From: Azolla caroliniana
Taxonomy: Eukaryota; Plantae; Polypodiophyta
Direction: 5' to 3'
DNA: 64,000 nucleotides
Assembly: GCA_043228905.1 (NCBI GenBank)
Contig: JBHGNT010000006.1
Location: 16,492,001-16,556,000, forward strand
The position numbers and the translations under genes were made by a program. The notes under the pieces were generated by a model. That model was not told the origin of the DNA and made no database searches. It saw only the letters and a program-made list of their open reading frames with translations. Position 1 is the first letter of the stretch. Each line of letters starts with the position of its first letter. Below are positions 11,901-50,775 of the stretch, one piece after another.

Positions 11901-12150
11901 TCGTATTAAACCACCTCCACCTCCGATCGAACTTGAAGATGGACGTGAGTATGAGGTTGCCGCCATCATCGATTCCAAGATTGCTCGCAACAAGCTCTAC
12001 TATTTGGTCGATTGGCTAGCATATAGCCCTAGCAAGCGTACTTGGGAACCAATAGAGATTGTGACCAATGCTCGTGCTCTTCGTGAAGCCTTCCATCGTC
12101 AATATGCAGACAAACCGGGTCCTCAATCCAAAACGACTTGTAACACTCGT
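8909..12150 (+). pseudogene. Chromovirus gag-pol remnant (gag C-term, PR, RT, RH part, INT, chromodomain)
   Basis: ORF fragments 10109-10378 (IYLDDLLVYS), 10336-10617, 10656-11072 and 11308-12186. Confidence 0.85.
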
Positions 12151-12453
12151 CGTTTATTATTATTTTCATTTATTATTTCACTATAGAAAATTGATGTGTA
12201 TTTCCAAATTTCTTTGGAATATTCTAGAAACTTCCGGAGTACTCCTGAAAACACTATATATAAGGAGGCACAAGGCATTATTTTGAACCAAATCATAGTG
12301 TCTTAGGAATACTCTAGAAATGTGGCTTAGGAATACTCTTGACATTTCTAGTATGTTCTAGAGAAATCTAGAATATACATGGATTTCCTAAGTGAAATAA
12401 TAAATGGAAATAATATTTTTTGTATTATAATGTATAGTTTAATACTCTTGACA

Positions 12454-13267
12454 ACACCGCGGCTTCCACGACCAAATTCTTGTATGAGCACATTTGGTGT
12501 CGGTTTGGTTGTCCTATCGAGCTCATTAGCAATCAAGGAAGCCATTTTCTGAATACGGTCAACCACGATCTCACCAAACATTACGCCGTAGTTCATAAGA
12601 ATAACATGTATTATCTACAGGCCAATGGTCTCGCGGAGTCGACGAATAAAGCACTCCATAATATCTTGAAAAAGATTGTCAACAACAACCGTACGGATTG
12701 GGACACAAAGTTGCATAGTGCCCTTGGGTGTACCACACCAGCTTCAAAACTAGCGTCCAATCAACACCATTCCGATTGGCCTTCGGCGTAGAATCCATAA
12801 TGCTTGTAGAGTTTCAGGTACCGAGTTTATGCATAGAGGTCCGCGAACGCCTTTCGGAGAGACAGTCTGAACAAATCCGCTTACAACAACTACTCGAACT
12901 GGGGGAAGACAGAGTGCACAACATGGCAATTTTGGAGCACGAGCAATGGTGGCGGAAGGCATTCGTGAACCGGTACTGCGGCACCAACGCAAATTACTTT
13001 GAGATGGGAAAATCGGTCCTTGTATTCCAAAATCGCATGGGACAGATGCTGGGAAAATTGCATTTCCATTGGATGGGGCTGTATTGGATAGTAGGAGTTG
13101 AAAATGGAACATTCGTACGGGGCACCCACGTAGGGGAAGTACTATGCCAGAAGGTCAATGGGTTCCAACTAAAGCCGTATTGGGGACCCACACCACCCAA
13201 CCCTTTCCACATCAAGACTAACAATCAGACCGCTTCCCCGTCGGAGGCGGAGGGGAATGGCCACTAA
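12454..13267 (+). pseudogene. Integrase C-terminal half of the Tat/Athila-like element
   Basis: CRFGCPIELISNQGSHF, QANGLAESTNK, GPY/F-like and VNGFQLKPY motifs; frameshifted. Confidence 0.85.
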
Positions 13268-13903
13268 TAGGGCCCACTTGTAAAAATATGTAACGATAGT
13301 GTACCATAAGGCCAACCATAACCGTTAGGTTTGAAATGAAAAAAAGTAAAAGAAAGAAAGAAAAAAAGAAAAAAAGAAAAGTCATGACTATTAAAAGGAG
13401 CACATGCACACAGTTTCCAAGAAAGGGAGAACATGCGTCCATAGGATGACTCGCATAATCTTGAACCCTAACTCCTCATCTTCACAAAAAGAAGAAACAC
13501 GCCATTTACCTGCATATTTCGGAAAACACTCCCAAGCTTTCTTCTTTTCTCGCTCTCCTCGCTCCCCCTTACTCCCCTCGCTCTTAACGTTCCCCTCGCT
13601 CACCTCATCATCACAGAAAATCCATCTTGTGAACCTTGCGTCCTAGTCGTTCCCCTCGATCAGCTCGATCGGACGACATGACGATAGATATCTCCCCCGC
13701 TATGCAACGATGGTTACACGACAAGGGCCTCAAAGGTTACATTCGGGTAGTAGAAGCTCCACCCCACTCGGACGCCTAGGATGTGGCAAGAAAACTCAAC
13801 ATCGACACAATCACAAATGCCAACATCAGGAAAAAACTGGCAAACATCACTTCAAAATCCCTCAGGGATTCTCAAACGATACTTCAGGGAATATTCAACC
13901 TCA

Positions 13904-13940
13904 AACACGTTCACGTTCACAAGTGGAAGGATCGCGCATT
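13904..13940 (+). repeat. Left terminal inverted repeat
   Basis: aacacgttcacgttcacaagtggaaggatcgcgcatt. Confidence 0.93.
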
Positions 13941-14261
13941 AATGGAAGGGTAAGGGAAATTTTAGGGGTTTTTCAATGATTTTACAAAACGTATTGATAC
14001 CAGTATCATACATGTTCAAACATACTATGAAAAAGGTTAAAAATCCACTATTTTCGTGATTTAGAAGTAACTAAAAAAAGACGAATTTCAAAAAGATACA
14101 TTCTCAATTTATATCACAAACTTTACAACCAATGTTATTTTATAAGAAACGATTTTTTAGAAATCATAAGAATTCAAAACACATGATTTTATATTACTCG
14201 ATTTGTTACAAGCGGAATGTAGTTACACTTAATAGCCAAATATACATTCATGATCACTCCT

Positions 14262-17031
14262 TTACGGAGAATCACTACTATAACTAATATACAATGACGA
14301 TTCCTCCTCATCATCCTCGGATGTACCAATCAGTGCATTATCTTCGTCATAAACCAAATGGTTTGACTCTAGATTATATGTAGCAGATCTCATTTGCCTT
14401 TGACTCGAGCCACCTTGTAGACCTGGTAATTTTTCTTTTATTATATCTATTGTTGACTTCCTTAATCGTTCGGCTTTTGTAAGTGTGATGTCGTACACGA
14501 TGATATCCACATCAGAGATATCAAGGGTCGAGGTGTTACGAATGTTTCGCTTCCTCTTCCTACCTCCCCTTCTTGTTTGGCATTCAATCATCTCCAATGT
14601 ATACTTACCTGTAAAAGCATTTGCACTTCTAGTGTTGTACAAATGAACATTTATAGACTTGATCGTGTTTTCTATTTCATGCATTAGCACTTCTAGAATT
14701 TTACCAACCCAAAATTGGTGGCCATGTGAGTTCTCATCAGCCGGCATTGCAATCAACATCCCTGCGGTGAGCTCTTGCAAATTTCCTTGCCATCTAGCTT
14801 CGGCTGCTTTGGTCATCCTTGGTCCCACATAAATGTCTCTTTGTTGTGGATGGACCAAGCTGTCATTAATCGCATTTACTAGTTGCTCCGGACTTCTATT
14901 TACGCGATCATGTTGCAGCGACCATGTGAATGGCGTTTCCAAATTCCAATTATCAACAGATACACAATTGTCTATAATTTCTTTCTGATCACTATAAAAT
15001 ACATCCCACCATGACGTGTCTTGTTGTGCGGCATATTTCTTGGCGGCCTCAATATGCTTTCTTTTTTCTTCTAAGGCTTGGAGCCATGACCATTTTTGTT
15101 CTGATACCAAGTCGCTCTGCAACTGTCCTTTCTTCTCAATTGGCATTTGCTTAGCTCCATGGACAATTGTACTCGGCATACAAAGTAATAACTGTTGTAG
15201 AAGATGTTGTAGAAGATGAATATTGTTTGGCATACAAAAGTGTAGAACCACTTATTCCATTTTTCTTTATCAAAAAAATGTGATTGAAACTTATATTGTT
15301 TAACTGAGCAAGCACTTTAACATTCCCACCACCCCCATCTAATATATATCTCTTAAAGTCATATACCTCCTTCAAGTGTAACACTTTTGGGCGTGGTGTA
15401 TAAGCATCACAAATGACATCAAATAGTTTAGGTAAAGTAAAAGCATCATGCCGAGACAACTATCTGGAGAATGTGCTAAACATCTGATCTATATGGTCAT
15501 GTGTGTGGCCAACCAAAAGGAAATTGACTTTCACTTTCCTAAACAATTCTAGGTTGACCAACATACTTAGATAGCCAAATACAATTGAATTTTTGTTCTC
15601 TCTAGTAGTATTGTCCAATTGAATGTATATAACAGGGGGGAAAGGTTGTCCCCAAGACATCAAAACTCGGTGAATCACTGTAACTGTTAGGTTAGGGTCA
15701 TTGTGAACATTGGGGTAAGTAATGAAGACGTGAGGTCGAACAGACCTATTATAAGCCAAGCATCCCACCAAGTGCATTTGAACAAGGCACTCATCATTGA
15801 CATCTTTGGGGAGCCTCCGCATATGCGGCAAGCATGTCTTCTTCTGGTCCATGCCATCTATCATTAAGCACATGTATTGTTCGGGCCTCTTCAAACACTT
15901 CTCCCTATGATGCATCGCCTTCCTTCGTTCTAAGGATTGTGCCTCACGATGCTCTTGTAGTAACTTCTTACTCGTATCCTTTTCCATTGATGTCTTTGCA
16001 CCTTTAGCCAAACTTTTAAGATTTGCACAAATGGAGCAATACCCCATACGTACTTTACGAGGAATAATAACATTTGAAAACCGAGCTCTCCATAATCTTG
16101 TGAATTGGCTATATGTGATCGACTTATTACGTGAGCCCAGCATATCAGATCGATAGACATCATAAACTTCCCGACGTGTATAATTATCAGAAAGATGCAT
16201 CCTACCTGTAGTGGGCATTACTTCACAATTTAACTGAAAGTAAGTTTTCATCCAGCCAATAGCTAGTCTTCCAATTGCACCTTTCATACTTGGAACCTCT
16301 TTACAATTGAGCATCTGATCCCCGCTAAGTAGACGTTGTTGTACTCTATGTAGCCGCATGTTACTAACACATAACGCAATTTTGAATGCAACTCTACATA
16401 TCTGTTGCGCATGGAAGATATAATACTCGAATGATACTTTGATCCCCGTACATTTGTCAGATACTAGTTGCATATGTGACCCGAGGTAAGTGTCTTGCTC
16501 ATCACCGGTCATCGAAAAATAGTATCGCCTTAATTCTCGCAACTTTGATTTTCCAATCATAGACATACAACCACGGGCACAACATATTTTGTTGACATCA
16601 AATCCAATCTGTTTATCTGATGTCACCAAGCTAAATCTAACTAGACGAATTCTTCGTGGGATTCTTCTAATATGCATAGGGCTCCCAGATTTCTCTTCCT
16701 GCATAGAGGTTGGTGTAACCTTGTTACAGTCTAATTCTTTGCTGTGACCATCGCCAATGTTATTCAATGTTTCCTGGGCACTTCCTTCATTCTCGGTATC
16801 TTTATTAATATCGTATTCTTCAATAGAGAACTCTTCACATGTGTCATTATTTACATTCCCTGTAGATGAGCTCAGACAATATTCTTCGATAGAATATGGT
16901 GAGTCGGTCGACAGACAATATTCTTCAATCGAATATGGTGACTCTGATGACAAACAATACTCTTCAGTAGAAAACGATGGGTCTGATGACAAACAATATT
17001 CTTCAATCGAGAACGGTGAATCTTCACTCAT
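14262..17031 (-). pseudogene. DUF7869/Sola-like DDD transposase, disrupted by a premature TAG (15460-15462) and a frameshift at ~15190-15220
   Basis: Motifs MIDGMDQKKT, IQLDNTTRENKN and FLLVGHTHDHIDQMFS; Cys clusters (CCARGC, CRVAF, CSIC); beta-rich SH3/Tudor-like C-terminus (GMLIAM..FWVGKILEV..INVHLY). Lies between the TIRs. Confidence 0.8.
16800..17025 (-). repeat. Coding tandem repeat, ~36-39 bp (SIEEYCLSS-like, x5), at the transposase N-terminus
   Basis: Seen in the translation: FSIEEYCLSSD / FSTEEYCLSSE / YSIEEYCLSTD / YSIEEYCLSSS / FSIEEY. Confidence 0.85.
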
Positions 17032-17874
17032 GGCTTAAGGTCTAGATAGGGCTCTCTAAGTTATGGGCTTAGGGGAAAGAAAAAAACTAATAAGCTCCTC
17101 TCTAAACATATACTCCTCTCTAAACATAAACTTCTCTCTAAACAAAAGCCAAATCAATAGAATGTCTATATTATGTAATATTCTATTAATACAATACATC
17201 AAAAAATTATTTTTAATAAAGTAATTGTACTTAAAATATCAATTATTATATAAACTAGATCTATATAAAGTTAAATCAAGTAAAATATAAAACTAATCAT
17301 TAACAAGCCATGAATATGTTGGATTAATGTTAAAATCATTGGCTAATTAATGGCACCCATTTTGATATAGAACGTCTCACTCATTGGTTCTTTAATGCTC
17401 ACCATTTTAAATATTAGACTTATCAATCATTGGTTAATTTATGCCCACATCTTTAATACACAACATTTGAGAGTCATAAAAATTGTTGGTTTTAGTAATC
17501 AATCATTGGTACATTCATGAACCTCTATCATTGTCTCATTCATAACCTTTGAAGTCATTGTAGGTTGTTATGACTATAAAAGATTGATCAATATGATAGT
17601 TTGACTTTGTAATCATCAATACAATCATAAGTTTCTCTAGTTAATGTGACTATGGTTACCAACTAACTATCCTCAAAGTTACCAACCTTGGTTAAGGTGA
17701 CTATGGTTACTTTAACCAATGTGTTCAATCCCTATAAATAGGAAGACCTCGTCATATTTCACTCACCAGAGCGTACAGAGCGTACAGAGCACACAGAACC
17801 TAGAGAGCACACAGAGCACATAGAGCACAAAGCACGAAAGCGCGATCTCCGCCTCCACTTCCACACGATCAAAC
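17032..17874. promoter_or_regulatory. Divergent promoter region; TATA box (cctataaata, ~17731-17740) for the methyltransferase gene
   Basis: AT-rich spacer between head-to-head genes, repeated tcattgg (CCAAT-like) motifs, TATA box ~135 bp upstream of the ATG, and agagc(a/g)(c/t)ac repeats in the putative 5' UTR. Confidence 0.55.
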
Positions 17875-20800
17875 ATGTCTTCAAAGAGAATCGAGCGCGA
17901 GGACTCCAGGTAGGCCTCTGACACTGTGGACATTTTTGTAAATATGTTTCGTTTCTCAAGAACTCAATACCCCGTATCGAGTTCATGTATACAATACAAA
18001 TATTTATACATGAACTCGATACGGCGTATCGAGTTCATAATTTAATTTTGCTTTTTATACAGGAACTCGATACGCCATATCGAGTTCATGTTTAAAGTGT
18101 AGGTTTTAAACAGGAACTCGATACGCCGTATCGAGTTCCTGTTTAATGTGTAGGTTTTAAACACGAACTCGATACGCCGTATCGAGTTCGTGTTTAAAGT
18201 GTAGGTTTTAAACACGAACTTGATACGGCGTATCGAGTTCCTGTTTAAAACCTACACTTTAAACATGAACTTGGTACGGCGTATCGAGTTCCTGTTTAAA
18301 GTTTAGGTTTTAAACACGAACTCGATACGCCGTATCGAGTTCCTGTTTAAAGTGTAGGTTTTAAACAGGAACTCGATACGGCGTATCGAGTTCCTGTATA
18401 TAAGAAGGCTTTGAGAGAGAAAAATTGTATTTTTGGGGTAACAAATAATTTTGGGATGGAAAAGATATCAAATTGTCTGGCAAAATCAGTCTTTTTATGT
18501 TGGCTTTCCTTACTTTAAAAAAAAAACATGCTCTAATTATAGGTGTTTTATGACCTACTTTAGCTTAAAATAGTAGAAAATGATCCACAAATTGCCTTTA
18601 CGATAGCAAATTCTCGTCAATATAGGTTTGTAATCTATATAAGTCATACCTACTATTTAAAAGAATATATAACCCTTTTTACTTATTACGATATATATTT
18701 TCTAGGTTGAATAGCCCTGCCTATAATAGATTTTTGAATATAGGACTGCTCCTGGGAACTGTTCTTCATGTTAATATACAACCTTAATCTACGTGACTAC
18801 CTAACTTATGTTTTTGCATATACTTTCTTAAATAGGTCGTTTGAAAACCTGTCGGACCGACCGGTGAAGAAAATAAAGCTTCGCATACAAGGTTCTCCAA
18901 TCGAAGCCCAGACCAAGGTAGCTCCTGAGACCATGAAGAGAGGAAACAAGCTTCTCTTTAACGAAGAGACAAAATCTCAGCCACATAGTGATGTTAGCCA
19001 AAAGAAACTTGTCGCCGCTACTGGAGGTGAAGACCTTCTTGACCGAGATCTAACGGACAAGGAATGGTGTATGCAATATGTCGACTCAAAGAAAAAAGTC
19101 GTATTGTATACAGCAAAGAAGAAGGGTGAGGGGCAACTTGGAAAGGAAACCCCATTTATGTATGGCCGTATTCTACGATTTGACTACGAAGATGCAGATT
19201 CAGCCAACATACTGGTAATGATAGAGTGCTCCAAGGGGGTACGTAAAGTGTTCCTTTCAGAAGACCTTTTAGTAAAAGAATCTTGTGGGCCAGAAGTGTT
19301 CAAAAAAGCACTTGATAGCTCACAAAACCTTATTGTTACCTTGAGGCCTTATATACAAGGCCATGTAACTCTAAGAGATGAAGTGCCCTCCCCATTGAAG
19401 CCAACAAAAAAGGTTTCCAAAGTCCAGTCAAGACTAGCAAAGAAGAAGACAATGAAAATGTCGGATACGGATTCAACAAGTGAAAACGAAGAGGAGGATA
19501 ATAAGGGGACGCCAGGAGCTGAGCTGGCCTCGGGTGTTTTGTCATCCGAGCAGAATAAAATAAGGAGAGAGTTAATGCAACGGAAGCTGGTCAGGAAAGG
19601 GCAAGTATTTAATTTGCCTATAACACACATCCATCGGCCCCCTATTGATGAAAAAACAGGTCGAAGACCACTTGAGATTAGAGAGCCTCACCGCATACAT
19701 GTTCAAAATCTCAAGAAAAAAATGAAAATTAATCCTCATGCCACTGTGGTGCCTTTTATTGTTATGGTGGATCCTGAAGAATGTGAAACCATTGAAGATT
19801 TTGATATTAGAAAGCATGATCAATATAATTATTTTGTCATTGGTGGATCACATTCAGCAGAGGCACGTCGGCAACTTGTGAGAGAACATCCAACCACTTT
19901 CTTCTTCAAGTATGCCGAGTGCAAAATTTATGTTGGGCTCACAACCGAAGAGGCTAAGTTGTTGGCATGGGACCATAATAATGATAATGACTATAGGCAG
20001 AAAATGTCGTCCATTGAGCGTATACGGTTCTTCCACCACGAGTATTTAGATGTGAAACAAAAGTTTGGTGTGAAGTTACATCCAGGCCTTCGACGTCAAT
20101 GTCTGCATGAAGTCGGCATTGTGGTAGATGATAATGTTAGGTCCGATGGTCTTCGAAAGTATGAGTCTTGGTTTCAATTGGCGTTTAGAGATGGAGAAGT
20201 ATGGGACCTACAAGATCAAATCTTCTCAATGTGGGAGAATAAGGAGGTAAAGGGTCAACGACAAAAGAAATGTAGGGTTGACCCTCAACTAGAGTTAAAG
20301 TCACAAGCCGCCAAGAAAATTGACTTGACAATTGAAGAAGCGGCAGATGACATGAAGCTGTCTCTATGGAGAGCGATGCAAGGTATTAAGGATGAGCAGC
20401 TTCTTGTGTCGGTTTTGTCAAGGGTTGTGGCTAAAGATTTAAGCCTTGAAGAAATGGTCGCTGAGTTCAATAAGTAAGTCTCTCAAATACTGAAATTGTA
20501 GTCTATCTAGTGTAATTCAAAGTTCTAATCTTGATTTTTAATTTTACAGTCATAAGGTGTACATGAAGATCCAAGAAGTTATGATGAAACAACTTGGATG
20601 TATAACTTGGGAACAAGTGACCGGGGATTATCCTCTAACGTCTTCGTATAAGGCATTATCAGAGTATTTTATTGCATTCAAGGATTGGGTTAGTATTCAT
20701 GTTTTTTCATTACCCTTTCATCATATGTAGAGCTTGTATAATAATACCTGATGTCCTATTGCTTCTATTAGAAACCGTGTCGAGGCAAGAAACAAGGAGA

Positions 20801-22061
20801 AGTTAAGGATATACACGATTTCCCTACATCCTTCGTTGCACATCTCGAGCGAGCCAGAAAAGAAAAGGATCGTCGCTTAGTCAAGGCGTACGAAATGGAG
20901 GAAGATGGCTCCTTTAAAAAATTTAGCCACAAAAAAGATATTACAAGAGATCTTTACTACAATGTGGTTTGCGGTGATGTCATCGACTTGATCCAGAAGG
21001 TGCCAAAGAAGGAATATACGCTAATGATTGCGGATATTCCTTACGGATTTCGAATGGCTGGGTCATCATACGACGATGAACCGTTTAGGTTTAAACAATT
21101 GGAGAAGATGGTCAAGGATTTCGCTGAGCTAACGACCGCATCCTTGTGGCGAATAGTTGTCTTTCATAGTATGGACCAAGGGTACTCGGTAGCTCAAGCT
21201 TTGAGATCTCGTTGCCATGGCATCGAGAACCTTGCATGGTAAGGATTATTTATAGGTGTCTTTCACTATATTGCATTTCTTAAGGTTGTTGAATCTATTC
21301 TTAACTCGATGAATTATTTTTTATAGGATCAAGACCAATGTAAATAGAGGGCCAACTTTTCGGTTCGTTAATGCCATTGAATACATAACGGTTGGCTACT
21401 TCGATGAAATTAAGAAACAGAGAATCAAAGAGCATTCTAATGAAGTGGGAGGTTCAAATCTGTTGGTATATCCAGCAGTGACTCGGAAATTGCGACATGT
21501 CACCACGACAGAACGGGGACTTGTCAACCCATACCAAAAACCTCAGCGACTTATGATGTGCTTGATCGAGATGTTTTCTGTCGAAGGAGACTGGATATTA
21601 GATCTCTTTTTTGGCACAGGTATTCCTCGAACTAGGGTAACGATCTTGAGATAACCAATCACTTTTTTTTCGTTTGACAACTAAATCTTCTTGTTACTTA
21701 CATCACAGGAACTACGTCAGCATGTGCATTGAAGCTGTTTAGAAATACAGTTGCATTGGAGAAGGACGAGGACCAAGTCATATTTATTAATATGCGGATT
21801 AAGTCTTTGTGGGAGTGCCCAGACCAGGATGAGGAGGTCGGTGCAAAGAACCTCGCCAATACAGAAAGGTTTCAACCTGCTTCGCGAGAGCCTATTCCTC
21901 CGTTAGCCGGCGAACCGGGGGAGCTAATAGAGCTTGATGATGAGCTTATAGAAGATATTTCGTTGGCTCGGCTAACAGGGGAAACCAATGCACGTATAGC
22001 CGAAGACAGTTCTACACAAGATGATGAAGAAAATGACGTTGATGAATTGATTGCTATGTAA
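17875..22061 (+). CDS. ParB/Srx-like domain fused to a beta-class N6-adenine/N4-cytosine DNA methyltransferase, ~974 aa, six exons (17875-17909, 18836-20473, 20550-20688, 20772-21238, 21327-21619, 21709-22061)
   Basis: All five introns are GT-AG with compatible phases, giving 2925 nt without internal stops. MTase motifs in beta order: GDVIDLI, IADIPYG (IV), W-IKTN..EYITVG, NPYQKPQRLMMCLIEMFS.EGDWILDLFFGTGTT (X/I), ALKLFRNTVALEKD. ParB-like VPFIVMVD..YFVIGGSHSAEARRQL..LAWDHN. Confidence 0.85.
17960..18400. repeat. Array of nine 25-bp palindromes (gaactcgatac-NNN-gtatcgagttc) alternating with 26-27-bp units, period 51 bp, in intron 1 of the MTase gene
   Basis: Copies start at 17960, 18012, 18063, 18114, 18165, 18216, 18267, 18318 and 18369. 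Spacers 3-8 are Ntgtttaaa-gtgtaggt-tttaaacaN. Confidence 0.95.
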
Positions 22062-22486
22062 TAGACTCTATAAAGAATATGACACTGACGATTTGTTAAG
22101 ATTTCACATTATTAATACAAATTTTGGGTTTTACCTAGTGGATTCTATTCTTTATAATCTTCTATATGTTTCAATTTTATTTTTATATACTTGATTAGTA
22201 GATTTATGACATTGGTTTCACCGCGTGCATAGCTGACTACCAAACTTATGGAGAAACATGAACTAGTTTAAATGGAGGCTGATTTTGGTCCAAGCTAACC
22301 TTAACAGAGCATGGCCCTATAATTGTTGCCATGACTGTCCATGTTGTTATTATGGATCTTTGTCTTCTATTGTTAAAACTATTATGTTTCTATTCCATTG
22401 CTGCTTAGATTGTGTAGTGTGTTGATAATGGTTCCAGTTGCGTTATCGTTCGGAGTTTGATCTTGTGTGAATCACCTAAGCAATAG

Positions 22487-22732
22487 AGTAGATCAATTTT
22501 AAATACAGGTATGAAAGCCTAATAGGTTTGTTATTTCCACGACATTATCCTAAAGTTCACTGCCTTACATTGTGCACAATTATATACACATATGGTTTGA
22601 TCCCATATGAACAAACTGAGGAATAGATTAGATCAACTTTAAATACAAGTATTGAATACTTTAATAAGTTAGTTATTCCAATCACTTATCCTAATATGCA
22701 CTATCCTACATTTTCCACAATTACATACATGC
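22487..22732. repeat. Diverged ~105-bp direct duplication (period ~140 bp) in the right subterminal region of the transposon
   Basis: tagatcaa(t/c)tttaaataca...ttatcctaa...cacaatta(t/c)atac occurs twice. Confidence 0.65.
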
Positions 22733-23004
22733 ACGTATGGGTCAAAGTATAAATTATATCTCATTTTATTAGTATGGATACAAGTACACCTCATATTTTT
22801 GTAAAACTTACCTAATTAATATAAGTCTTTAAGTTAGTGTTTCCCTTGTCGCACAGTAGTGCCATATTGAGCCATAGTTGAACTTTATTATGCCTACATT
22901 AACTTATCAACATGTCTAAACTTGCATGATTTCTAATGATCTCCACTCGTAGATCTATCATGTATTTTTATATTTGCTTCGTTTTAAGAAGATTCTACAA
23001 GTGG

Positions 23005-23041
23005 AATGCGCAATCCTTCCACTTGTGAACGCGAACGTGTT
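23005..23041 (-). repeat. Right terminal inverted repeat
   Basis: aatgcgcaatccttccacttgtgaacgcgaacgtgtt; its reverse complement matches the left TIR at 35/37 positions. Confidence 0.93.
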
Positions 23042-24482
23042 CTCAACAAAAGCATAGATAACATCGGAGGTACCTAACCCATTCTTTCGCAAAGTGGCTA
23101 AGTTTTTATTGGAAGTAGGGTGCGTACATACCAATGCCTACAGGATGCCGAAGCAGAAAGCGGGTATTGTCATCGCTACATTTCAGGGTCAAGCCATTGA
23201 CTGGGGAGTCATCACGGGGCTAGTGTTACGAGAAGGACTGCACACGTTTCAGGTTGGGAAAAAGCTTCGCCCCATCATCCAGCAGTACTTGACAGTACTA
23301 TTTCTCCCATGTGGCCTCCACGCCTCGGAATCGGACCACCATATAACCACGCCACGTTCATCGAAATGGAAATTAGCTGAACTCACAGTACTGGAATGGG
23401 AGGATGAAGAAAATCCGTGAGATGTAGAAACCTCACAACCACAAGACGAGCAACAACCAATCCTGGTTCAATCTGTTGAATGGAAACCAACAGATTCACA
23501 GATTAGGCCAGAGACGGCACCCGAGAACCCGAGACCCAAACGTAGACGACGGGACAAGAAAGACAGTCGCGGGCTAGTTATAGACACAACCCCACGAGTT
23601 GTAAACCTTGCTACGATAGCGGCCGACACAACATTGGAGTTGATTTTCAAACCTCGACCAATATTAATCGGGCAGTCGCAACACGGTAAGGACGCAAGGC
23701 AGTGAAGGTACTGCAAAACAAGCTCGATGCCGAAATAGCCGAACAAAGGCCTAGCTGAACACACTCAACGAGGAGGGAACCAAGAAAGAAGGAACCATCA
23801 TGGTGTTAAGAGAAGTTGCACAGAAATGGCATGCATGGTATAACGAACAACTCGAGCATGAGCGCCAAAATACCAGAGATGTTGAAATACGCCTCAACAA
23901 TGAGATGGGCCGACTAGAGGGGCTTCATGAGAAGGAGTCTCAGATATTGTCACAAATGAAAATGCATTATGAAGAAGCAATGGCGGTCAACAAACACAAA
24001 ATCGAAAACCTCAAAAAGGCTCTTGAGGATTTGCAGGCCCACACTCGCTTTAACATGGAACATATCCGCCCCCTTCTCCACACAAAACGAGAGTGGTTTA
24101 CGACCCAACTCCGAGCGGCCATGGACAGAGGTTGGGCTGGATGCGCGAAGTAGGCGGCGGAACTCCACACTTACAGGGTGGATTGGGAGAATCAGCGAAA
24201 GGACGGGAAAGATTTTTCCACGTTGAGCGAGGATAACATTGCTATGGTCTACGAAGACCTGATGTAGAACTACCAAGCCTTGGCTGACTGCCACACCGAG
24301 GAAATAGCACAACCAATAGAAGATTTCGGTGAAAGCTAGGATGAGACATTACGCTAACTGCACAACATTAGCAACGAACAATGAAGAGTGGAGGAGACGA
24401 AAAAGGCAGAGGCCATCATCCTTCCAGACAGTGACTCGCGGAGCGGCACGAGGGTCCGCATAAGAAAGAGGAAGTTGTAGAG

Positions 24483-24745
24483 GTCACTATGACACCCACA
24501 CCAAGTGGAGTTCCCCACACCTCGGCAACTACTACGGAAAAAGGACCTCAGGAGGAACCACGACCGGACACCTTCGTACCACAACTGCCAGAGTCCGCGG
24601 AACAACAGGAGAGTCCACATGAACAAGAGGAAGCCCCGATGGTCACTACGGCACCTGCGCCAAGGGAAATTCCCCACACCCCGGCCGCTACCACAGAAGA
24701 GGGACCTCGAGAGGAACCACGACCAGACATCTTTGCACCACAACC
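24483..24745 (+). repeat. ~159-bp-period duplication in the gypsy extra ORF
   Basis: gtcacta..cca..ttccccacacc..gaggaaccacgacc occurs twice. Confidence 0.7.
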
Positions 24746-25797
24746 TCTAGAGTTACAAAGAGAGCCCAACCGTACTTCCACAAGCGCAGATGAAGAAATA
24801 TGGGTAGAATCAACGATGGAGTCACTATGAGAGGATTCAATGGCTGACCATTAGGAGTGGGAGGCCCAGGCCGTGGAGGACACGACACGGGGACCATAAC
24901 CAGAGTCGGAGAACTCCGAACCCTACCATGCTACGACACCAACCATCACAACGAATAACTAGGACCAATGAGGGAAACAATGTAAAGATCGAAGGGGTTC
25001 TAGGGGATAAGCGTAGGCTCGTAATAATGGAAGCATTAGGAAGTATAAACGCATGTGACACTCCGTGCACTAAGAGTAACTCTCCATGCCCTGTATATAT
25101 AAAGGGCATGGGAACACTATAAGGGGGGCCGTAGTTATTTTGTAAGTTGGAATATAGTCATGTTGTCTTTCTGAACTGTGTGTCTATGTTAACCTTATGT
25201 ATCTGTGGAGGTGGTAATTAAGCATGTCTGTGTAAAGAGAGATGACACGGTGCGAAGGAGCTCGGTTGTAGCCATCTCCTGTACAACGCTTCTTCCCTCG
25301 CGTATACCCTTACGACGTAAAGATTAGGCATAGTTTACTAGTCTAGACCTTTTACGCGCTCCATTTCGTGTACCACAATCTTCTTGAGCCGTACCCCAAA
25401 GGACCGAAGGTAGGCCGTGATAACCTACTCGGTAACACCAATCCATCTCTGACATGCGTCTAGCATATCGGTTGATAATACTTTGGTCAGCATGTCCGAC
25501 TCGTTCTCCTCTGTATGGATCTTCATCAACGAAAACTCTTTATCTCCTATCTTCTCCTGGAACCAGTGATATCTCCTCTGGATGTGTTCGATCTGGGAGT
25601 GATAGGCCGTGTTCATTGCAAGGTTTTTGGCGCTTTGATTGTCGGAGTAGAGGCGAAATTCATCATGCCAGATCCTTAAGTCTCCGATGAAGTCCTTCAT
25701 CCAGATTACTTGCTTGTAAGCTTCTACAACTACCATGTATTCTGCTTCCGTTGTCGATAGTGCCACCGATTTCTATAGTCTTGATTGTCATGATACC

Positions 25798-28700
25798 TAT
25801 CAAGACTAAGAGAGAGAGAGAGAGAGTATTGTAAAGATAATGTATTGCACTAGAAGATGGAATACAATGAGTAAACAACAAGGGAACTCTAGAATGGCAT
25901 TGAACCAAATTGGTTAATCCCTTATTATTAGATGCGTATTTATAAGTCTTAATGAGGTATTCTAGAAAGTCCTAGAATAAAGATTGTGCTAGAATACTCT
26001 AGAACATTCTAGACAATAGAGCACTCTAGAATATTCTAGAACATTCTAGAAGATAGAGTACTGTAGAAAACTTTATAATATTCTATATAGTTTATAAATT
26101 CTTTACACATAAATATATCATTACAATGGTTAAGAACTTGATATGTATATAACAAGGTTGTGGGTTTGATTCCTTGTAAACTCAAATCTTATGTAAGTAT
26201 CATCATGACACTATCCCCCTTCTTCAACAACCCATATCACGAGTCGCATGGGTTGAACTAGGACTTGGCTTATGAGGATATTGTCGATGAAATTCGGTGA
26301 CCATGTCTGTAGCATTGACAAGATTTGTTGCAGGTTCCCAAGTTCGATCATTGGGTGTATAGCCTAACCAATCGACCAAGTAATACAACTTGTTGTGCAT
26401 GATCTTGGAATCGAGAATGGCAGCAACCTCAAATTCTTGTCCTTCCAAAAACTCTACAGGTGGTGGGGGAGCTTCGATTAGTCTCTGGATGATAGCCCGA
26501 AGAAAGCTTAGCCGAAAATCGGAGAAGTTTTAACATGTGCTTCCACAACTTTGAGATGAATTGTGGACCTCGATCACTAATAATATCGTCTGGGAGACCA
26601 TGATGCTTGAATACCTCTCGCATAACTAGATTGACTTTCTCTTGACTAGTAATAGACTTTGTACATGGCAAAAAATGTGCCATTTTGGTAAGTCGATCGA
26701 CCACGGTCAGAATGGTATCAAAACCCCTCGAAACTAGGAGATTAGTAATGAAATCCAAGGATATAGACTTCCAAGGATTTTCAGGAATTGGAAGTGGTTG
26801 TAGTAACCCATATGATCGGTGTCGAGGACTCTTTGATTGACAACATGTATCACAACTTCGGACATACTCCTCCACAAAATGACGAAGTTGAGGCCACCAA
26901 TATCGCCGAGAAACTAATTCTAGAGTTTTGGCGACTCCCAAATGTCCAACCATTGGTGTGTCATGACAATGTTGTAAGACTTGCAAGCGTGGGGGACCAT
27001 TAGGAACATACAGTAGGTTTTGTCGAAACAGAAAACAACCATGCCAATAGAGCTACCTATAGTTAGTACGAGGGTTTTGCGACTTCGAGCAAGAAGCACG
27101 ATCCGGGGTGATATGATCCCAAACATCTTACGCGAACACATCTTTTCTCGAATGGAATCAAGAAGAGTGGAATCCTTGGGTGTGGTTATGGAATTAACTG
27201 CCATTAATCGTAGGCGATTTAGACCCAAAAGGATTTGTTTTTTATGCTCAAAAGTTGGTTCTCCTAGATGAAGTTCCATATAAGAGCATCAAGAAAGAGC
27301 ATCCGCTTTTCCTTGCTGCATCCCTGGGCTATATATGATTACAAAGTCAAAGTGAGTTAAAAATTGCGCCCAACGAGCTTGTCGCCGACTTAAGACTCGA
27401 GCATTCTGGAAATATGTTAGGTTCTTGTGATCATTGTAGACAATGATCTGCTGAGAAGAACCTTCCAGAAAATGTCGCCATTGTTGAAAAGAATCCACAA
27501 TTGCTAGAAGCTCTTTGTCATGGATCTTGTAATTAATCTCTACAGCTTCGAATTTTCGGGAATGAAAAGCAATAGGATGTAGTTGCTTGTCATCTCTAGT
27601 TTGCGATGGAATACTTCCTAATGCAAAGTCGGATGCATCAGCTTCAAGGATGAAGCGTTTCTTGGGATCAACATGAGCCAAAATAGGTGTTGCTATCAAT
27701 ACTCATTTTAAACTTTTGAACGCCTCGGTCGCCTCTAAATTCCATATGAATGGTTGATTCTTGTGTGTGAGTCGGGTTGATTCTCATTGATATATTCCCG
27801 CAAAGTCTCTAGCTCTACAGGTGAGAGATTATAAATTGGCACCCATGGCAGTTCTTTCCCTGATTGTAAGTAAATAGGGCAGTCACATGGCTAATGCTCT
27901 GGAAGTGTATTTGCCTTCACCTTATCAAAGACGTTTGAAAACTCTTTGTATTTTTTTGGTAATTGGACATTCGGCTCCGGTAAGATGGGTGATGAGCTTC
28001 ATGGAGTTGTTACGATTGCAAATACGAACATGTCCTTGTTCCTCCCTTCCTCACGTAACTGATGGAGAGAGATGGTTGATAACTTATGGGATCCAATATC
28101 AAATATTGGAGTATTGAGGGATGTGAGTGTAGTTCTTTTTTCTTGGGATTCCTCAATTTTTCTTTTCATCCAATCAATCTTCGGGTTATGTAGTTCAAAC
28201 CAAGGGAGACCTAGAACTAATGGGTGTGCTGGACTACGAATAATATTGAAAGAGAGGTTATTCAAGGGGATGTTTTGTGTCAATGCAAACTCACGATCCA
28301 TGAAACAAGAGTTGGCTCCAGAATCTAAGAGGGCAGAGGCTAGGACTCGATGACATGTAGATGTGCTAAGCTCAACTTGTGCAAAAAAAACTCGACTAAC
28401 TTGATTTGATGAAATGGAACCACGACTAGAAACTACTCTATATACTTATGATTGTCCAACCAAATGGCTCCTATTTTGGCCGGACTTACTCGTTTAACAC
28501 ATCCTCTAATTGGCTCAAGACATTGAATCTATTCTCATGCCATGGACTACTAGGCTTATTTATGTTATTAGAAGTAGTGTTGTCTTGTGCACTTACTTGG
28601 TATACTTGGCGTCTAGGTTTATGCAGACAATTCACAGCTATATGTCCTAGACCCCCACAATATAGACATAAGCAGTGTGCTCGACGTCGTTGCTTCTCAA

Positions 28701-43219: not shown

Positions 43220-43612
43220 TAAAACCGGAAACCAGCCGGTAAGCAAATCCGGAAAACGGGTTCGGTAAGCAAATCCGGAAACCGGCTAGTATGCAATCCG
43301 GAAACCGGCAGGTATGCAAAACCGAAACCGGCCGGCAAGCACACCGGAACCGGAACGGGTATGCAAACCGGAACTGGCCGGTAAGTAAAACTGGAACCGA
43401 CTAGCAAGCAAAACCAGAAACCGGCCGGTAAGCAAAACCGGAACCGGAACCGGAACTGGCAAGCAAACCGGAACCGGCCAACATCAAAACCGGAACCGGA
43501 ACCGGCCAACATCAAAACCGGAACCGGCCGGGAAGCAAAACCGGAACCGGCCGGGAAGCAAAATCGGAATCGGAACCGACCGGCAAGCGAAATTGAACCG
43601 GCTACCGGACGA
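43220..43612. repeat. AACCGG-rich minisatellite in the 5' LTR of gypsy G
   Basis: Tandem aaaccggaaccggccggcaagc-type units. Confidence 0.9.
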
Positions 43613-50338: not shown

Positions 50339-50775
50339 AAAACCGGAAACCGGCCGGTAAGCAAATCCGGAAAACGGGTCTGGTAAGCAAATCCGGAAAA
50401 CGGGTCTGGTAAGCAAATCCGGAAATCGGCCGGTATGCAAAACCAAAACTGGCCGGCAAGCAAACCGGAACCAGAACGGGTATGCAAACTGGAACCGGCT
50501 AGTAAGTAAAACCGGAACCGGCCGGCAAGTAAAACCAGAAACCGGCCGGTAAGCAAAACTGGAACCGGTCGGCAAGCAAAACCAGAACCGGAACCGACAA
50601 GCAAACCAGAACCGGAACCGGCCAACATCAAAACCGGAACCGGAACCGGCATGCAAACCGGAACCGGCCGACATCAAAACCGGAACCGGAACCGGCAAGC
50701 AAACCAGAACCGACTGGCAAGCAATATCGGAACCGGAACCGACCGGCAAGCGAAATTGAACCGGCTACCGGACGA
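50339..50775. repeat. AACCGG-rich minisatellite in the 3' LTR of gypsy G
   Basis: Same units as in the 5' LTR, with different copy number and order. Confidence 0.9.

Follow-up and report, generated by a model that had tools for sequence, protein, structure and literature searches.

We analysed a 64,000-nucleotide stretch of the Azolla caroliniana genome (the window; all coordinates refer to it) and found that nine 25-bp palindromes, set at a period of 51 bp between 17960 and 18393, form a real array carried by a 9.1-kb multi-copy transposon with 37-bp terminal repeats and a 4-bp target duplication. The array lies within the predicted first intron of a gene for a putative ParB-methyltransferase fusion (hereafter ParB-methylase). 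We consider it probable that the palindromes are parS-like loading sites for the predicted dimer of this protein, encoded by the same element. We infer a mechanism with the following steps: (i) the ParB-methyltransferase would load as a dimer on the array; (ii) it would mark the adjacent promoter and element DNA with 6mA or 4mC; and (iii) the mark would regulate the head-to-head promoter (autoregulation) or counter host silencing.

The ends of the element are well defined. The left terminal inverted repeat (13904-13940, plus strand) and the right one (23005-23041, minus strand) are 37 bp long with 95% identity in an inverted-repeat search, and they are flanked by copies of the target-site duplication CTCA at 13900-13903 and 23042-23045. 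Public sequencing runs, among which the source of the window itself may be present, yielded contigs that exit at both ends: 38 of run X1 depart from the sequence ahead of 13904 and 74 of run X7 behind 23041, in each case into flanks that are unlike one another (agreement 0.39 and 0.36, respectively). Contigs that exit exactly at the element ends into unlike flanks indicate a multi-copy mobile family. We also looked for an empty site, and a second copy of the element flanks was absent from the window and from 12 related loci (see below).

The minus strand carries, at 14262-17034, a transposase gene of the DUF7869 (Sola-like DDD) type, a domain that we take to be linked to Sola transposons. The gene is broken in this copy by a stop (15460-15462) and by a change of frame that falls between 15182 and 15220; in the relative L012, it is one open frame of 933 aa. 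The transposase matches PF25273 (E 6.4e-52), and its acidic residues D399/D402, D480, and D522 are invariant or at least 90% conserved among 37 sequences. Near its N-terminus, 39-bp repeats at 16876-17007 encode a 13-residue acidic repeat, as they do in L012. Sola DNA transposons are characterized, in the portion of the source available, by terminal inverted repeats, a 4-bp target-site duplication, and a DDD transposase (PMC10741241); all of these are found here, the target duplication in the window. The transposase gene is arranged head-to-head with the plus-strand ParB-methylase gene across an 844-bp intergenic region (17035-17874) that is likely a bidirectional promoter. This region contains short direct repeats, and in 17090-17829 these form sets of 18 bp (three copies), 45/46 bp (three copies), and 9 bp (seven copies), together with a 20-mer pair 51 bp apart.

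All parts of the ParB-methylase gene lie on the plus strand. Exon 1 (17875-17909) is predicted to be followed by a 926-bp intron (17910-18835) that contains the array, by exon 2 (18836-20473), and by exons 3-6 (20550-20688, 20772-21238, 21327-21619, and 21709-22061). The six predicted exons join to one open frame of 975 codons with a single terminal stop (974 aa). An earlier reading of this DNA, made from the sequence only, had placed the array in intron 1 of a methyltransferase gene; this placement agrees with the predicted GT-AG ends of the intron and with the open frame that results from splicing. Exons 3-6 are predicted to encode an N6/N4 amino-methyltransferase. This half matches PF01555 (E 5.8e-7, 30.1 bits versus a cutoff of 26.7), and a (D/N/S)PP(Y/F)-like catalytic motif, DIPY at residue 692, stands ahead of an FxGxG motif, FFGTG at residue 854. 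DIPY also occurs in L002 and L005. The order of catalytic motif before FxGxG is, on our understanding, that of the beta class of amino-methyltransferases.

Exon 2 is predicted to encode a small N-terminal beta domain, an acidic linker, and a ParB/Noc/KorB-like part, whose nucleotide-binding and helical domain spans about 19548-20473. It has no Pfam match, and a profile search of PDB sequences returned 0 matches. Its structural model (pLDDT 83.5) matched ParB, Noc, and KorB structures in Foldseek (best E 2.7e-5). The closest agreements were with PadC (Z 9.8, rmsd 3.0, 100 aligned), pNOB8 ParB (Z 8.8, rmsd 5.0, 211 aligned), and KorB (also Z 8.8); the match to the DNA-binding domain of KorB alone was middling (Z 4.9, rmsd 4.7). 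A fern homologue of exon 2 likewise led to ParB clusters in Atlas. On this model, exon 2 is predicted to combine a ParB/Srx nucleotide-binding fold with a helical DNA-binding domain behind it. The ParB part was also modelled as a homodimer, with a score of 0.54 against 0.00 for the best control, at least 70% of contacts shared between runs, and a pLDDT of 76-77. Among solved pairs 21 of 30 reach the score mark, and among single chains 0 of 23 do; the pass seen here may stem from likeness to solved ParB dimers. The modelled interface lies on the GGSH and DHN...R motifs, which belong to the predicted nucleotide site.

The canonical ParB P-motif is GERRxR, according to the accessible text of PMC11790492. 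Neither this form nor GARRYR is present in exon 2, and GGSHSAEAR stands at the matching place, with H conserved in 98% and S in 76% of aligned rows. The altered P-motif makes CTP use uncertain, so we do not class the protein as a canonical ParB CTPase. A ParA-like gene was not found in the element. Between the window and both L002 and L005, exon 2 is 83-84% identical in amino acids and 39-48% identical at fourfold sites; judged from such alignments, it is under purifying selection. Named homologues come from Ceratopteris (the closest, 60%), Adiantum, Ginkgo, Riccia, and Chara, a set that by itself would make a seed-free plant the likely host. Riccia sorocarpa has genes of the ParB family whose locus tags stand next to those of DUF7869 genes (R1sor_010796/010795 and 022317/022315; P0062/P0231 and P0056/P0240), which extends the pairing to liverworts. 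In another relative of the ParB-like region, P0089, the fusion partner is a SAM (sterile alpha motif) domain. We note that the N-terminal beta domain (19038-19379), folded alone, gave a pLDDT of 86.7 and no clear family match; its best weak match was M18BP1 SANTA (Z 5.9, rmsd 4.4, 103 aligned), followed by PH-like folds.

A search of the whole 64-kb window, allowing up to 4 substitutions, found exactly nine matches to the 25-bp palindrome, all at 17960-18393. Five of the nine copies have exact arms, and the other four carry 1-2 changes. Outside the array, pairing at 10 or more of the 12 positions of the arms occurs in 8 of 63,525 25-mers. This background rate, together with the predicted fold of the array RNA (-295.8 kcal/mol, z = -31.5), argues that the array did not arise by chance. 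The nine cores read CCC, GGC, GCC, GCC, GCC, GGC, GGC, GCC, and GGC, just as the sequence-only reading had listed them. It took these as a 3-bp core in two orientations; both orientations do occur, but the palindrome consists of 12-bp arms around one central base, and GCC versus GGC is a single C/G difference. The repeat unit is one 43-bp palindrome, including the outer arms, repeated head-to-tail with 8 bp separating the copies. Such a tandem layout creates a second symmetry axis automatically, which accounts for the 'double palindrome' noted earlier. Spacers 3-8 are palindromic with 9-bp arms, as had been claimed, with pairing at 8, 7, 9, 8, 8, and 9 of 9 positions, respectively. Their core is GTGTAGGT in 4/6, GTTTAGGT in 1/6, and ACCTACAC in 1/6. 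Spacer 6 (18241-18266) was also correctly described as the exact reverse complement of spacer 3 (18088-18113), with 0 mismatches. In L012 (7860-8100), several spacers have TTAGGGTTT or its complement as their core, which resembles the plant telo-box; the cores in the window have no exact match to it.

Relatives were collected as 12 loci from an exact 25-mer scan of metagenome contigs, a scan that selects for the 25-mer and would miss any element whose site differs or is lacking. The loci comprise seven methylase-side pieces and five short derivatives or parts thereof. L002 and L008 are near-identical and L001 is close, and the window plus the seven contigs therefore amount to about six independent families. 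The majority sequence of the 25-mer is identical in 8/8 methylase-side elements (the window and the seven contigs). Between families, fourfold-degenerate sites of exon 2 are 28-48% identical, and intron 1 outside the array barely aligns (z 0.8-3.2 versus shuffles). The intervals between palindromes are exactly 51 bp in 30 of 37 cases, while the 8-bp cores vary. Four CpGs are kept in the 25-mer, and CpG-type changes make up 25 of the 64 differences seen. In the window the array comes after exon 1, and in 4/7 methylase-side contigs (L001, L009, L011, and L012) it comes after an exon-1-like stretch. Among 35 homologue clusters, only 2 are tied to an array-bearing contig at >90% identity. Profile-based locus scans found no relatives in GTDB genomes and IMG/VR, and a 23-mer gave 0 matches in the same collections. 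The comparison across related contigs bears out the expectation that other copies of the element carry the array, and we rejected an unrelated MITE as its source, since the array belongs to the transposon family and recurs in its relatives. Public reads were examined at the two flanks of the array. That independent assemblies hold similar arrays makes an assembly artefact unlikely for the array design.

The short derivatives (L003, L004, and L007; one family; 2.9-3.5 kb) keep both ends and 1-3 perfect sites. Almost all of their coding sequence is lost, with scraps of both genes left, and the 51-bp spacing is gone. They carry an inverted duplication centred on palindrome sites. Matching copies of the target duplication were found in 0/3 short-read contigs with both ends, all of them short derivatives, possibly a result of collapsed copies. 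At 1230-1920 of L004, and also in L003, a segment of about 190 bp between palindromes is present as an inverted duplicate around a site pair, which suggests that the palindrome site seeds fold-back duplications. We take this segment to have tRNA-like A/B-box features; ARAGORN found 0 genes in the 12 loci.

The sequence-only reading had described orientation mosaics with independently flipping cores and attributed them to template switching or recombinase-like inversion. The mosaics are real and recur in related elements: among 26-bp spacers, 10/30 have a C-rich core, the minority orientation, and both orientations are present in the window and in 6/7 methylase-side contigs. The central base of the palindrome, counted over the window and its relatives, is C in 26, G in 14, T in 3, and A in 2 cases, compared with 9 C-G changes at 540 arm C/G positions. 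This excess at the centre points to inversions or to a selected C:G pair. Of the 15 oriented elements in the window copy, 5 run against the majority. Full independence is not supported, as three in-register flips rather than five suffice: the centre of palindrome 2, a block, and the centre of palindrome 9. The block runs from the centre of palindrome 6 through spacer 6 to the centre of palindrome 7 (18228-18279) and flips as a unit; undoing this single inversion lowers the differences from the consensus from 19 to 12. Over the 10 flipped spacers, inversion of the whole spacer fits better in 7 and inversion of the core only in 1, with 2 ties, which places the breakpoints within the palindromes.

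Polymerase template switching between palindromes is the likely origin of the flips, which would then be by-products. The available text of PMC8604942 describes template switching that reversibly inverts short spacers and homogenises arms of at least 10 bp, and this published process is sufficient here, so a recombinase is not needed. The reversible inversion of short spacers between arms and the homogenisation of arms are common to both systems. The yeast cases are single inverted repeats in genes with 2-5-bp spacers, whereas the present case is an array with 1-bp centres and 26-52-bp blocks. We regard it as extremely improbable that the units serve as recombination sites, with a site-specific recombinase flipping them and orientation acting as a switch. 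The arm-core-arm layout with an 8-bp asymmetric core suits such sites, as does the occurrence of both orientations in nearly all methylase-side copies. Lox-type exchange requires matching cores, however, and core sequences differ within one array. The better fit of whole-spacer over core-only inversion and the sufficiency of three events in the window also speak against it, and no recombinase family was found among the six window frames scanned or in the scanned frames of relatives. We therefore rejected a recombinase switch of the lox/FRT type, having found no sign of fixed-core strand exchange and no cognate recombinase in the frames scanned.

Several observations argue that the palindromes are binding sites, an idea that the sequence-only reading had raised and that fits the data. 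Template switching can perfect symmetry but cannot hold a specific sequence, so the identity of the 25-mer in all methylase-side elements, while neutral sites diverged, favours a binding site. The same is true of the four CpGs, kept despite the frequent CpG-type changes, of the 51-bp period, kept while cores vary, of the recurrent position of the array after exon 1, and of the perfect sites retained in short derivatives. The persistence of flips while arms and spacing are kept is expected of a symmetric double-stranded DNA site, which is indifferent to orientation. The exon 2 model adds a candidate binder, as it resembles ParB, Noc, and KorB and models as a homodimer, and Plavaka transposons of Bostrychia pair a ParB gene with tandem inverted repeats. 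Against the binding-site reading stand the selection of relatives by exact 25-mer and the few clusters tied to arrays, the GGSHS form of the P-motif, the middling match to the KorB DNA-binding domain, a site of 23-43 bp that exceeds the 13-bp core of the KorB operator as given in the accessible source, and the loss of the 51-bp spacing in short derivatives. A further-reaching version strikes us as doubtful: a eukaryotic ParB-type clamp would load at the intronic array, close on nucleotide, slide over kilobases, write 6mA/4mC over the element and, in trans, over its short derivatives, and so block host 5mC silencing.

The array could also be bound by the transposase or a host factor. It would then be an internal enhancer or binding cluster needed in cis, with the methylase gene a mere host. 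In favour of this, the array lies less than 1 kb from the transposase start, and the short non-autonomous derivatives keep array sites together with both ends. We nevertheless hold this to be unlikely, since the array is about 4 kb from either element end, array-terminal repeat pairing is absent among the 25 longest inverted pairs in 12000-26000, and the neighbouring gene encodes a fold known for palindrome binding. It is quite improbable that the array works as RNA, with intron hairpins yielding small RNAs that regulate the element or host genes. The very stable fold, many sub-threshold matches to miRNA models, and the position in a predicted transcribed intron speak for this, and the stacked hairpins anticipated by the sequence-only reading are indeed a strong fold. 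Selection for hairpins, in contrast, found no support, because spacer arms are not compensated and pair no better than shuffled partners (204/270 versus a mean of 212); the tolerance of both orientations suits double-stranded DNA. No Rfam match, out of 37 for the element and 43 for four contigs, reached the gathering threshold of its family, and we rejected a miRNA cluster. A functionless satellite, amplified by slippage from one palindrome and kept symmetric by template switching, is in our judgement very improbable. Palindromes do perfect themselves and flip without selection, according to the parts of PMC8604942 available, and the scan that found the relatives favoured the exact 25-mer. On the other side stand a consensus and a period that stay the same between families, although neutral sites in these have nearly saturated.

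Such a design, in which a transposon with a ParB-like protein marks itself, has already been proposed for brown and red algal transposons. In Ectocarpus, Sola1-1_Ec32 carries an opposite-strand accessory gene for a fusion of a ParB-like domain with an N4C/N6A methyltransferase, and self-modification was proposed (PMC12477816). It shares with the present element the Sola-type DNA transposon and the opposite-strand ParB-methylase fusion; it differs in host (a brown alga), in size (21.5 kb), and in protein length (1104 aa versus 974 aa predicted here), and the likeness of the proteins is drawn from its description. The string 'palindrom' is absent from the main text of that paper, which, as far as available, defines no binding site. 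The Bostrychia Plavaka elements with PAG2/PAG3 have a ParB-like gene beside tandem inverted-repeat arrays that were proposed as its binding sites, and self-modification was proposed there too (bioRxiv 10.1101/2025.02.11.637652). A ParB-like accessory gene and an adjacent inverted-repeat array are therefore common to both systems. The Plavaka elements, however, belong to the EnSpm superfamily and occur in red algae; a 2OG oxygenase is the fusion partner of their ParB, and their adenine methylase is a separate SET-fused gene.

Among bacterial systems, the KorB operator offers a parallel that favours the binding-site reading: it is a palindrome of odd length whose centre is G/C, and its core is 13 bp long (PMC11790492). 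The KorB/OB, Noc/NBS, and ParB/parS clamps, as far as their sources are available, resemble the present system in fold, modelled N-terminal dimer, central-G/C palindrome, and promoter proximity; they are bacterial and CTP-dependent, whereas the fern protein has an altered P-motif, a methylase fusion, a longer site in a phased array, and no ParA-like gene found. The anti-silencing protein VANC of the Arabidopsis VANDAL elements binds tandem, non-palindromic motifs of 8-9 bp, which diverge quickly from family to family, and causes loss of 5mC (PMC5735166). VANC acts, and the present protein would act, via tandem motifs in introns or other non-coding parts of the transposon that encodes it. The present site differs in its length, palindromic form, and conservation, and the predicted activity of the present protein is to add a mark. 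MpDN4MT1 of Marchantia is likewise a prokaryote-type amino-methyltransferase of a seed-free plant; it is a host gene with a TSPPY motif, and the available text mentions ParB 0 times (bioRxiv 10.1101/2021.02.12.428880), whereas the present enzyme has DIPY, is ParB-fused, and is borne by a transposon. ParB-linked methylases have been named from phages and chlorophytes, and the present land-plant family is not named in the available part of that account (PMC4738411). In a literature search with most subscription papers and Repbase outside its scope, we found no paper that deals with this element or its site in land plants.

The flips themselves are ordinary, and the value of the system rests on a testable pair of site and enzyme. 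The algal papers propose ParB transposons that bind and modify themselves and, in their available text, give no tested site. The present family offers a sharply delimited candidate, in which a 25-bp palindrome is conserved and repeats every 51 bp beside an intact-looking enzyme, and this turns the idea of self-modification into a simple binding and methylation assay. If the binding-site reading is true, seed-free plants would carry a mobile, sequence-targeted 6mA/4mC writer, with a bearing on the disputed source of these marks in plants and possible use as a targeted epigenome tool. The clamp version, if true, would mean that a bacterial-centromere mechanism was repurposed in land plants as a self-marking epigenetic writer. 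The remainder of the window consists mostly of decayed LTR retrotransposons. A 23/24-bp satellite occurs there in two copies (43221-43600 and 50339-50764) that flank a Gypsy-like gag-pol region and probably lie in its LTRs.
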